From: Acidobacteriaceae bacterium
GTDB lineage: Bacteria; Acidobacteriota; Terriglobia; Terriglobales; Acidobacteriaceae
NCBI GenBank assembly: GCA_040003205.1
Contig: JBDUDA010000001.1
Location: 1-44,277, forward strand
Length of the DNA: 44,277 nt
Reading direction: 5' to 3'
Part shown: in pieces, positions 40,873 to 43,818 of the stretch
Numbering within the stretch: the stretch's first letter is position 1
Layout: every line of letters begins with the position of its first letter
The notes under the pieces: model-generated
Seen by the model: the letters and a program-made list of their open reading frames with translations, nothing else
The model's database searches: none
What the model was told of the DNA's origin: nothing
Made by a program: the position numbers and the translations under genes

Positions 40873-43818
40873 ATGCTCACTGGCTCCGAAATTCGTCGCA
40901 AGTTTTTGGATTACTTCGTCCAGCATGGACATAGAGAAGTCCATTCGTCATCGCTCGTGCCAGCGAATGACCCCACGCTCCTATTTACCAATGCGGGGAT
41001 GAACCAGTTCAAAGATGTCTTTCTCGGCCTGGAAAAGCGCGACTATAAAACGGCAACGACTTCGCAGAAGTGCGTCCGCGCCGGAGGCAAGCACAACGAT
41101 CTCGAGAACGTAGGATTCACCAACCGTCATCACACGTTTTTCGAGATGCTGGGCAATTTTTCTTTCGGAGACTATTTCAAGAAAGACGCCATCGCTCATG
41201 CCTGGGAGCTGATCACTTCCGGCAAGTGGTTCGGTATTCCAAAAGAGAAGCTCTACGCGACGATTTTCAAGGGCGAGAATGGTGTCCCTCGCGACAGCGA
41301 AGCCTATGACTTATGGCTCGGCCAGGGCTTATTCAAAGATCGGATCTTTGAGTTGGGCGCGAAAGATAATTTCTGGCAGATGGGCGACACCGGGCCGTGC
41401 GGCCCCAGCAGCGAGATTCATTACGACATGGGCCCGCCAGCTTCTGATCAAGGGCACACCGATTGCGCGTTCGGATGCGAATGTGGACGCTACGTCGAAA
41501 TCTGGAATCTCGTGTTCATGCAATTTGACCGGGACTCTGGCGGAAAGCTAAATCCGCTGCCGAAACCGTCCATTGATACGGGGATGGGATTAGAGCGAGT
41601 GGCGGCGGTGTTGCAAGGCAAGATTTCGAATTACGACACGGATTTGTTTGTGCCGCTGATTGAGAGAGCGGCAGATTTAACGAGCAGCACTGATGTAAGA
41701 ACGGACCGTGTGGGGACGGGCGCCCCCGCCCGTCCAGTCGAGCAAAGCTCGACAAGAGGTTCGACCGCAACGCAATCAAACGGAGCTTCGCTCCGTCGGA
41801 CGGGCGAGGGCGCCCGTCCCCACACGAGTGGTGGCAACGCCGGCAATCAGCACGCGGCTTCTCTCCGTGTGATTGCCGATCACTCTCGGGCTGCGACTTT
41901 TCTCATTTCAGATGGAGTACTGCCTGCGAACGATGGCCGTGGGTATGTGCTGCGGAAGATTATTCGCAGGGCCATCACTCATGGGAGATTGCTTGGTCAA
42001 ACAAAACCATTCCTGCACGAAATGGTTTTCGCAGTTCGCGATCTGATGCAGGACGCGTTTCCCGAGATCATCGAATCTTCGGACAAAGTTTCGAATGTCG
42101 TCCTAGAAGAAGAGCACCGATTTGCACACACGCTCGCCCTCGGCCTTCCGAAGTTGGAGGAAGCGATTCGACTCAGCGCGACGACCCGCATGGGTGCTGA
42201 GGCGGAGGTCATCCCCAAAGGTCAGAAGCTACCGCAATTACCCGGCACCACGGCCTTCACTCTGTATGACACGTTTGGCATGCCTCTCGATTTCATGCAG
42301 GATGCCGCCCGCGATCAAGGAATCGAATTTGATCAATCGGGCTTCGACCGCGCCATGCAGGAACAGCGGGAGCGCGCCCGCGCATCCTGGAAAGGCGCAG
42401 CCAAACAAACCGCCAATCCCGCCTACCAGCAGCTTCCCAAATCTGATTTTGAAGGCTACTACCAGACTCGCTCCGCGAGCTGCGAAGTGTTGGCCATCAT
42501 CAAGAATGGACAGGGCGCGCCGGAACTTTCTCCTGGCGACGAGGGTGAAGTCATTCTTGGTCACACTCCGTTCTACGCGGAATCCGGCGGACAGGTCGGC
42601 GATCGCGGATGGTTTTACAGCGATGACCACAACACTATCGTCGCCGAAGTTAAGGGATGCTACTACCCGGTACAGGGCGTGCGCGCGCATCAGGTGGTGG
42701 TGAAATCCCCACCCTCCGCAAAAAACGCGGGAGGATGGGGCACCCGGGGGATTCGTGTGGGAGACAAAGTTGACGCTGTCGTGGACACCGGAATTCGCGA
42801 ATCTACCATGCGCAATCATACGGCCACGCATGTTCTTCAGGCGGGATTGCGCGAAGTCCTCGGGAAGCATGTGAAGCAGGCTGGATCGCTGGTTGCTCCC
42901 AACCATCTGCGCTTCGACTTCTCTCACTTCACTTCTGTCGCGGATGAAGAGTTGCAAGACATCGAAGACCTGATCAACAAAGAAGTTTTGCGTAATCAGA
43001 AAATCGAAGTCATTCCCGACGTGCCGATCGATGTTGCCATCAATGAATACAAGGCGATGGCATTGTTCGGAGAAAAATACGGCGACCGCGTGCGCGTTAT
43101 AAAGATTGGAGACTTCTCTACCGAGCTTTGTGGAGGCCTGCACACTGGCGCTACCGGCGAAATCGGATTGATTAAAGTTTTGAAAGAAGGCAGCGTTTCT
43201 TCTGGAGTGCGACGCATTGAGGCTGTGACCGGGGAAGGATCTTTAAAACACTTTCAGAAAGATCATGAGCTTGAGAACGTTGTATCTGCATTTGTTAGTC
43301 CTACCCTTTCGCAAAAAGCGCGAAAGGATGGGGCACCCTTGGTTGAATTTTCTCCCGCTGAGGCTCTGAAGATCGAGCTCGACAAGAAAGATTCTGAGAT
43401 CAAGCGGCTTTCGCGTGAGCTTGATCAGGCGCGCATGAAGTCGGCTTCTTCTACCGTCGCGTCCGCTGGCGAAAATATTAAAGATGTCGGCGGAATCAAA
43501 GTGCTTGCGCATCGCGTAGACAACCTTGAGCGCCAGCAGATGCGCACGCTGGTGGATCAGCTTCGCGACAAATTAGGTTCCGGCGTTGTAGTGCTCGGGT
43601 CCGCGAATGACGGAAATGTGTCGCTCATCGTCGGCGTCACCAGGGATTTGACCGCTCGCATTCAGGCTGGCAAAGTCATCGGACCTATTGCGCAGAAGGT
43701 TGGTGGTAAGGGAGGCGGACGCCCTGATCTGGCCGAGGCCGGCGGAAAAACTCCCGAGACTCTGGACGCGGCCTTGGCAGAGGTGTATAGGGTAGTTGAG
43801 TCGCTGCTGGGCGCTTAG
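40873..43818 (+). CDS. alaS: alanine--tRNA ligase (elongated by three in-frame palindromic insertions)
   Basis: 981 aa. Contains [35 protein letters not shown], editing-domain HTATHVL and C-Ala [15 protein letters not shown]. The frame is uninterrupted. Confidence 0.95.
41707..41826 (+). repeat. 120-nt palindromic element inserted in-frame in alaS (codons 279-318)
   Basis: The 29-nt terminal inverted repeats are cgtgtggggacgggcgcccccgcccgtcc and ggacgggcgagggcgcccgtccccacacg, matching at 28 of 29 positions. Each arm is itself a 9-bp hairpin. Internal hairpins are gtcgagc-aaa-gctcgac (41737-41753) and cggagc-ttc-gctccg (41781-41795). Confidence 0.85.
42711..42745 (+). repeat. ~35-nt hairpin element in-frame in alaS (copy 1)
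   Basis: accctccgcaaaaaacgcgggaggatggggcaccc, flanked by aatcccc / ggggatt. It encodes ...[14 protein letters not shown]... Confidence 0.75.
43303..43338 (+). repeat. ~36-nt hairpin element in-frame in alaS (copy 2)
   Basis: accctttcgcaaaaagcgcgaaaggatggggcaccc. It encodes ...[15 protein letters not shown]... and has the same architecture as 42711-42745, with compensatory stem changes. Confidence 0.75.

Follow-up and report, generated by a model that had tools for sequence, protein, structure and literature searches.

Two short hairpins in alaS, the gene for alanyl-tRNA synthetase (AlaRS), are read here as single copies of a repetitive extragenic palindromic (REP)-type element inserted in frame, with a cognate REP-associated tyrosine transposase (RAYT) encoded elsewhere in the same genome; we put the probability of this reading at roughly 0.85. 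The gene lies in the window, the 44,277-nucleotide stretch analysed here, which is contig C269 of a draft Acidobacteriaceae genome (GenBank GCA_040003205.1, here G000; 2.83 Mb in 285 contigs, 84% complete), and the predicted transposase is encoded on contig C244. Comparisons were made with the window's own family within the Terriglobales (Acidobacteriota; f1, 18 genomes) and with a sister family (f2, 12 genomes). Locations are collected in Table 1.

Table 1. Location of the elements, their host genes and the predicted cognate transposase
Feature	Location	Strand	Basis or remark
alaS, alanyl-tRNA synthetase, 981 aa, host gene	40873-43818	+	Open reading frame and translation; E = 7e-144 to E. coli AlaRS 3hxu
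REP copy 1, A-type (CCCCACCC-TCCGC-AAAAAAC-GCGGGA-GGATGGGGCACCC)	42707-42745	+	Site 1, loop of the beta-barrel domain
REP copy 2 (CCTACCC-TTTCGC-AAAAAGC-GCGAAA-GGATGGGGCACCC)	43300-43338	+	Site 2, linker following the editing domain
120-nt palindrome from another repeat family, in frame in alaS	41707-41826	+	Inverted repeat I4
RAYT	G000:C244:157-696 (L031)	-	NF047646, 109.7 bits (best of three); PF01797
TsaD, with PTLSLQKAQRQGWGT	L226:439-1749	-	REP in sense orientation
UbiD-family protein (decarboxylase), with GAPSFPGFGKGG	L239:157-1836	+	REP in antisense orientation
Oligopeptide-type ABC ATPase, with GAPPLSRSLRPGG	L257:493-1341	+	REP in antisense orientation

Two palindromic insertions in alaS

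A first-pass annotation of the sequence had assigned the segments 42711-42745 and 43303-43338, which translate in the alaS frame as aa 611-626 and aa 810-823, a common hairpin architecture with compensatory differences in the stems. Both claims are borne out. The sequences are as quoted there and form a 34-nt direct repeat with 85% identity (D19 in the repeat search of the window), each copy contains one of the only two exact occurrences of the 13-mer GGATGGGGCACCC in the window, and the changes between the stems are paired (CCTCCGC/GCGGGAGG versus CCTTTCGC/GCGAAAGG), each copy folding as one 12-bp hairpin with -19.4 kcal/mol for copy 1 and -17.4 kcal/mol for copy 2. The hairpins had been located correctly and drawn slightly short at the 5′-end, where an outer stem, CCC(C)A...TGGG(G), had been missed; this stem adds four pairs around a 1x1 C.A mismatch, and the full elements therefore begin at 42707 and 43300. 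Translation reads the two copies in different frames of the element, and the open codons on either side number 617/357 for copy 1 and 815/159 for copy 2.

Homologues of the window AlaRS carry PF01411, PF07973 and PF02272, its catalytic domain matches that of the E. coli enzyme (3hxu, E = 7e-144), the editing motif HTATH is formed by residues 649-653 (H649-H653) and the alignment with the Archaeoglobus fulgidus enzyme (3wqy) continues through residue 962. The open reading frame (ORF) is free of stop codons, and the class II core, the HxxxH editing motif and the C-terminal C-Ala/DHHA1 domain are all present and intact alongside the insertions. In the alignment with 3wqy, 12 residues at site 1, within the beta-barrel domain, have no counterpart and end 23 residues ahead of HTATH; the 13 unmatched residues at site 2 follow the editing domain immediately, close to where the deltaC construct 2ztg stops, and precede the long C-terminal helix. 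Both positions agree with those first proposed. Site 1 is empty (...AKQPIRVGD...) in L002, L005 and L007-L015, all of the same family, site 2 is empty in L002, L003, L006, L030, L036 and others, and the sister family has neither insertion. Neither segment aligns to conserved AlaRS residues, and both copies are judged from these alignments to be true in-frame insertions of 12-13 residues and not parts of core AlaRS. An AlphaFold2 model of the whole protein shows both REP peptides as coil linking regular elements, at a pLDDT (the model's per-residue confidence score) below 50. The model, made from a shallow 32-sequence alignment, is poor (mean pLDDT 58.7) and many core regions also fall below 50; the predicted coil agrees with positions in loops and is given little weight.

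The window AlaRS exceeds its E. coli counterpart by ~105 residues. The first-pass annotation had ascribed much of the excess length to the two hairpins together with the 120-nt palindrome, and this is roughly right: the three elements supply 79 residues (53 + 13 + 13), residues 277-329 at the 120-nt palindrome having no counterpart in E. coli AlaRS, and ~17 more are contributed by a hypervariable stretch, aa 436-452.

A dispersed repeat family and its predicted transposase

Copies of the element share CCC(A/G)CCC, a variable stem, an A-rich loop of 5-7 nt, the complementary stem and (T/C)GGGGCACCC. The hairpin foot, CCC(A/G)CC...GG(T/C)GGG, and the 3′-tag GCACC(C) are conserved, and the upper stem and loop vary while pairing is kept. 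A strict pattern fixed at the termini only, with no pairing required (CCCRCCC-N12-36-RYGGGGCACC), has 19 matches in G000 versus 0 for a reversed control, and recurrence elsewhere in the genome, on which the first interpretation of the two segments had been made to depend, is thus found. Fold-checked scans raise the number in G000 to ~27 clear copies in all, a lower bound in a draft assembly, each a single hairpin of 9-14 bp and -12 to -26 kcal/mol. Strict-pattern counts reach 61 in G012 and 47 in G018, and there are dozens of further copies in G000 and its relatives where the reversed control gives 0-1 matches. A looser scan, in which any stem ahead of GGGGCACC was accepted at one mismatch, gave 206 mostly spurious matches and was replaced by the fold-checked and termini-only scans.

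Within the foot, A...T covaries with G...C, giving an A-type (CCCACCC...GGATGGGG) and a G-type (CCCGCCC...GGACGGGG); a third subtype is CCCAGGTT...AACCTGGGGCACC. For copies chosen by their termini alone, several pair types are found at each inner stem position, and stem positions 8-12 are paired in 73% of cells versus 52% (maximum 64%, 500 trials) when the 3′-arms are shuffled among copies, the 73% being a lower bound because the register was ungapped. The evidence for pairing is taken only from these termini-selected copies, since a count on copies selected for pairing would be circular.

By crude gene calls, 25 of the 27 copies in G000 are extragenic, many 8-40 nt after a stop codon and in either orientation relative to the neighbouring gene. 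Doublets with outward tags and spacers of 67-89 nt are present on contigs C141, C242 and C274 and look like transposase-less versions of the unit formed by a RAYT gene and its inverted copies, described below. GTAG and CGTC are absent from both ends of the element, whose conserved terminus is GGGGCACC(C), with the reverse complement GGGTGCCCC. The element is therefore filed as a REP-type family that belongs to neither of the two published tagged superfamilies. No Rfam family matched the window at the gathering threshold, and a search of 41500-43600 at E<=10 returned only sub-threshold chance matches. The 12-bp stem, 7-nt loop and 3′-CACC also suggested a tRNA-like minihelix, a candidate that was dropped as the A-rich loops are unlike a T-loop and copies occur in both orientations.

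Pfam Y1_Tnp (PF01797) matches three places in G000, and all three ORFs pass the NCBIfam model NF047646 (REP_Tyr_transpos, REP-associated tyrosine transposase; 109.7, 90.4 and 99.4 bits, cut-off 80). The highest-scoring, on C244, has an HUH motif (HVH) and the tyrosine motif YIHRNP, matches E. coli TnpA-REP (4er8) and is bracketed by identical inverted copies of the hairpin, at 146-178(-) and 745-777(+). From its sequence and flanks it is the predicted cognate enzyme of the hairpin family. The same arrangement, an inverted pair with outward tags, flanks RAYT homologues in at least seven relatives, G013, G004, G016, G015, G012, G018 and G007, so that REP-bracketed RAYT genes are present in eight genomes with G000 included. 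Within L118, L122, L123, L124 and L134 the flanking pair is identical or differs by 1 nt, and the stems differ between loci; L117 and L121 are less regular, with the same repeat family in the RAYT flanks. The remaining two RAYT genes of G000, on C215 and C48, have flanks without an inverted pair of this repeat or of any 11-mer-sharing repeat. Two further features of these genes were noted: the C244 ORF runs into the downstream REP (146-178), which supplies its last eight codons (GDPPFASR), just before the stop, and the C48 enzyme (L033:973-1863(-)) has a ~150-residue C-terminal tail with a degenerate repeat of ~7 residues (SLVESR / SLTENR / SLIENR ...).

The strict pattern is present in 17/18 f1 and 2/12 f2 genomes, and a RAYT (E<=1e-20) in 14/18 f1 genomes and one of 12 in f2; the latter, G021, is also one of the two f2 genomes with the repeat. 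These co-occurrence counts are descriptive and carry no statistical test, as the genomes are related. Within the Terriglobales, both repeat and enzyme are almost restricted to the family of the window.

Whether other long housekeeping genes carry such hairpins had also been raised. In G000 only alaS has copies deep inside a long ORF; relatives do have copies within genes. Among 42 copies cut out from two of them, G018 and G003, four have >=100 open codons on both sides, three of which are within clear genes, for TsaD, a UbiD-family protein and an oligopeptide-type ABC ATPase (Table 1). In-frame insertion, in both orientations, is thus a recurrent fate of this REP family. The fourth copy is in a long open frame of G018 (L246:325-1785(+)) in which only residues 34-85 match a DNA methylase domain; the frame may have been fused or mis-joined and may not represent a single gene.

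Turnover at the two sites and alternative explanations

Among 105 full-length orthologues (80-97% identity), nearly all carry both peptides, one of them in the form PTLSQKTRKDGAP; these sequences were retrieved with a peptide-containing query and so are biased towards carriers. When conserved AlaRS motifs were used for retrieval instead, 8 of 36 segments had a filled site 1 and ~15 a filled site 2, and all deep branches of their tree are empty. The insertions are old, common to many Terriglobales orthologues with turnover at the same sites, and not recent events of G000.

At site 1, at least five different elements are found at the same codon, with stems that include TCCGC (L001, L003 and L034), a perfect CCCCACGTCTCG (L004), the G-type TTGTCGC (L006) and TCTTTCGC (L150), and with a composite of two elements in L144. 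In L004, L144 and L150, a half-copy or spacer of an older element is located just upstream of the intact copy. Two main compensated alleles are present at site 2, TTTCGC/GCGAAA (LSQK) and TTGCGC/GCGCAA (LAQK), together with a copy in the third reading frame (SHPSK...; L150), a composite and degenerate form (L035), duplicated 5′-halves (L004 and L011) and decayed copies without hairpin or tag (L146, L153, L158 and L159). The presence of different stems and half-copy remnants at one codon appears to result from later copies having been inserted next to or into the resident one. Single-gene trees place sequences with empty sites within the crown clade, including the same-genus G001 and G002, which lack the site-2 copy, and the empty linker of these two (ALATHSDTV-like) resembles that of the empty sister lineage L154. 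Some site-2 absences therefore look like retained or re-acquired ancestral alleles, not deletions; repeated gain, loss and recombination at these sites are not separable by single-gene trees, which are poorly resolved. Comparisons of filled with empty alaS sites yielded no insertion target sequence or target-site duplication, the flanks being too diverged. In addition, a second, unrelated small repeat is nested in the loop or stem of the alaS REP in P0079, P0118, P0110 and P0025, the corresponding peptides in orthologues being PSTGSGQA, PSTSSGQA, SLRSGQA and SLPQHANTARAGG.

Where two carriers agree in the amino acid, they also agree in the codon in 85.9% of cases within the site-2 REP versus 52.9% for the remainder of the segment; of 202 13-codon windows elsewhere, none is above 69.1%. 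Amino-acid identity is not higher within the REP (0.80 versus 0.85 in the rest of the segment), and what is constrained, or homogenised, is therefore the nucleotide sequence rather than the peptide.

How the two segments came to resemble each other is the simplest point to decide. A coincidence of composition would be in keeping with the 13-mer, when allowed two mismatches, not being enriched in the window (3 matches versus 1.2 expected), but two exact 13-mers within a matched hairpin architecture over 34-39 nt, and the many copies in G000 and its relatives that the reversed control lacks, leave this next to no credence, and chance is excluded as the explanation of the similarity. Selection of the peptides for a role of AlaRS at the protein level, such as a new interaction surface, with the palindrome incidental, would account for their being well conserved among >100 orthologues at 80-90% identity. 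That set is, however, the carrier-biased one, the less biased sample having the two sites filled far less often; the two sites use different frames of the element and share no peptide, site 2 is read in the third frame in L150 and is composite and degenerate in L035, and it is codon identity, not amino-acid identity, that is raised. We consider this explanation very improbable. As the element is read in three frames, and in both orientations in other genes, the encoded peptides are passengers.

A more serious alternative, although still an unlikely one, is that the hairpins are RNA or DNA structures of alaS selected by the host, for example as translational pause sites at domain boundaries or as mRNA-stabilising stems, with the resemblance to a repeat secondary or a result of co-option. 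Synonymous sites at site 2 are far more conserved than elsewhere in the gene, the stems change by compensated substitutions between orthologues, both sites are at domain junctions and all alaS copies are in sense orientation, as such structures would be. Yet the same element flanks RAYT genes and is scattered between genes in both orientations, many same-family orthologues do without one or both copies, the copy has decayed to ordinary coding sequence in L146, L153, L158 and L159, the in-frame copies in the UbiD-family and ABC ATPase genes are antisense, and no Rfam family matches.

Insertion of REP copies with a cognate RAYT on C244 accounts for the distribution of the element, and several observations weigh against it. 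The case for mobility is drawn from family membership and from patterns of presence and absence, the tags that mark the two published REP superfamilies, GTAG and CGTC, are missing, and the copies that flank the RAYT in G000 are G-type (CCCGCCC...GGACGGGG) and those in alaS A-type. A selected RNA structure is another possible cause of the strong conservation at synonymous sites. In all lineages and at both sites, the alaS copies are in sense orientation, which random insertion would not predict; this uniformity would be expected if each insertion had a single origin or if insertion were strand-specific. The copy numbers for G000 are minimum values from a draft, and the trees are of a single gene with poor resolution.

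IS200/IS605 elements and E. coli TnpA-REP provide analogues for action on folded single-stranded DNA. By analogy, the RAYT would recognise the folded hairpin and tag on single-stranded DNA, and then cut and rejoin it. Most copies land between genes and, in an essential gene, presumably only those that keep the frame and are located in a tolerant surface loop would survive selection; in AlaRS, the tolerant places would be the beta-barrel loop 23 residues before HxxxH and the linker that joins the editing domain to the C-terminal domain. The insertions probably arose in an ancestor of a subclade of this Terriglobales family and since have been kept, lost, decayed or replaced, with later family members inserted beside or into a resident copy, as if resident copies attract insertions. 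Tentatively, and with rather more doubt than confidence, these linker codons can be regarded as reusable docking sites, at which different REP members would repeatedly have been inserted, excised or swapped in one orientation, during the radiation of this Terriglobales family, with the resident hairpin or its tag as the next target. On that view alaS would be a natural archive, within an essential gene, of exact insertions and excisions by the RAYT, and not a single frozen accident, and the constraint on the nucleotide sequence would keep the hairpins active.

Six of the genomes, G001, G004, G023, G028, G029 and G030, are flagged as unpublished. Two orthologues come from them, the same-genus L003, with a filled site 1 and an empty site 2, and L009, in which neither site is filled. 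They also supply L122, in which the RAYT is REP-flanked, together with L115 and L131, as well as the pattern counts of G001, G004 and G030 and four of the 12 f2 outgroup sequences (L024, L026, L028 and L029). The main conclusions stand without them.

Relation to known systems and further observations

REPs inside genes are not new. Di Nocera, De Gregorio and Rocco (2013, BMC Genomics 14:522, PMC3733652) described GTAG and CGTC REPs that are located within genuine ORFs and translated, in several phyla; their cases include tRNA synthetase genes (X. oryzae, E. litoralis and S. alaskensis) and genes struck more than once, and in their view REP insertions are in flexible parts of modular proteins. 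The alaS copies are likewise short palindromic REPs wholly within an ORF and translated, but with the tag GGGGCACC(C) in place of GTAG or CGTC, and Terriglobales alaS is not among the host genes in the consulted passages of PMC3733652. As REPs inside genes were already known, the alaS case is clear, if fairly ordinary. The first-pass annotation had called three insertions in one essential gene remarkable: the insertions are real, and the adjective is too strong given the intragenic REPs of PMC3733652, some of them in tRNA synthetase genes. What is understood in principle stays as it was, since translated REPs within housekeeping genes had already been published. The series of alleles at the same codon is the only part that goes beyond published descriptions.

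The family resembles the REP/REPIN-RAYT systems (the REPtron, E. coli YafM 4ER8 and Pseudomonas REPINs) in being an imperfect palindrome of 30-45 nt with a conserved terminal tag, in having tens of dispersed, mostly extragenic copies with inverted doublets 55-100 nt apart, and in having an HUH/Y1 gene within an inverted pair. It differs in its tag, in modest copy numbers (up to ~60 per genome) and in upper stems that are highly diverse within one genome and not near-identical; it is, moreover, a family known from sequence alone. Rickettsia palindromic elements (RPE), selfish palindromic repeats that reportedly were described by Ogata et al. in 2000, are said to be inserted in frame in protein-coding genes, essential ones included, and to be translated, and in this they are alike. 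They occur in obligate intracellular Alphaproteobacteria, and the longer families such as RPE-1 are 100-150 bp. To our knowledge, RPE families are unrelated in sequence to the Terriglobales REP and have no associated RAYT.

Closer in phylogeny are the TIRYT tyrosine transposases and their terminal inverted repeats (TIR), reported from Acidobacteria (K. versatilis, T. saanensis, A. capsulatum and G. mallensis) in PMC3733652, which also mentions RPE. These form a distinct group of RAYT-like enzymes, of the same phylum and flanked by inverted repeats, and at least one of the flanking repeats, that of K. versatilis ORF1552, is part of a dispersed family (PMC3733652). The C244 enzyme is filed by NCBIfam as REP_Tyr_transpos, and it is likened to TIRYT by description only.

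The phylum, in which such systems are little described, thereby gains a REP family whose tag, GGGGCACC, is new, together with its matching RAYT. REP insertions explain part of the range in AlaRS length, from ~880 to 1036 residues, in this soil clade, and REP target choice and loss could be studied through the series of alleles and remnants that this essential gene has at a single codon. For annotation, the peptides ...KDGAP..., ...GWGT... and ...GAPPL... in Acidobacteriota proteins should be regarded as translated repeats and not as motifs.

Three further observations concern alaS and the window. The hypervariable stretch that adds to AlaRS length is part of a region (42148-42258, aa 426-462, within the tRNA-recognition region) that varies extensively within the clade: orthologues >80% identical elsewhere hold unrelated sequences there, of 17 to ~120 residues. 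This region is not REP-like and is mostly helical in the AlphaFold2 model. The alaS of G016 as assembled (L016 ~1200-1560, G016:C1) has two frame changes, one near QQLPKS/FEGY and the other within the site-1 REP at its A-run, between which the frame carrying the remainder of alaS contains stops; this is probably a homopolymer indel error of the assembly. Outside alaS, positions 986-40197 of the window are rich in other hairpin repeat families (TGTCAT...GAGCG..., ...GTCGAAGGACCCCTAT).

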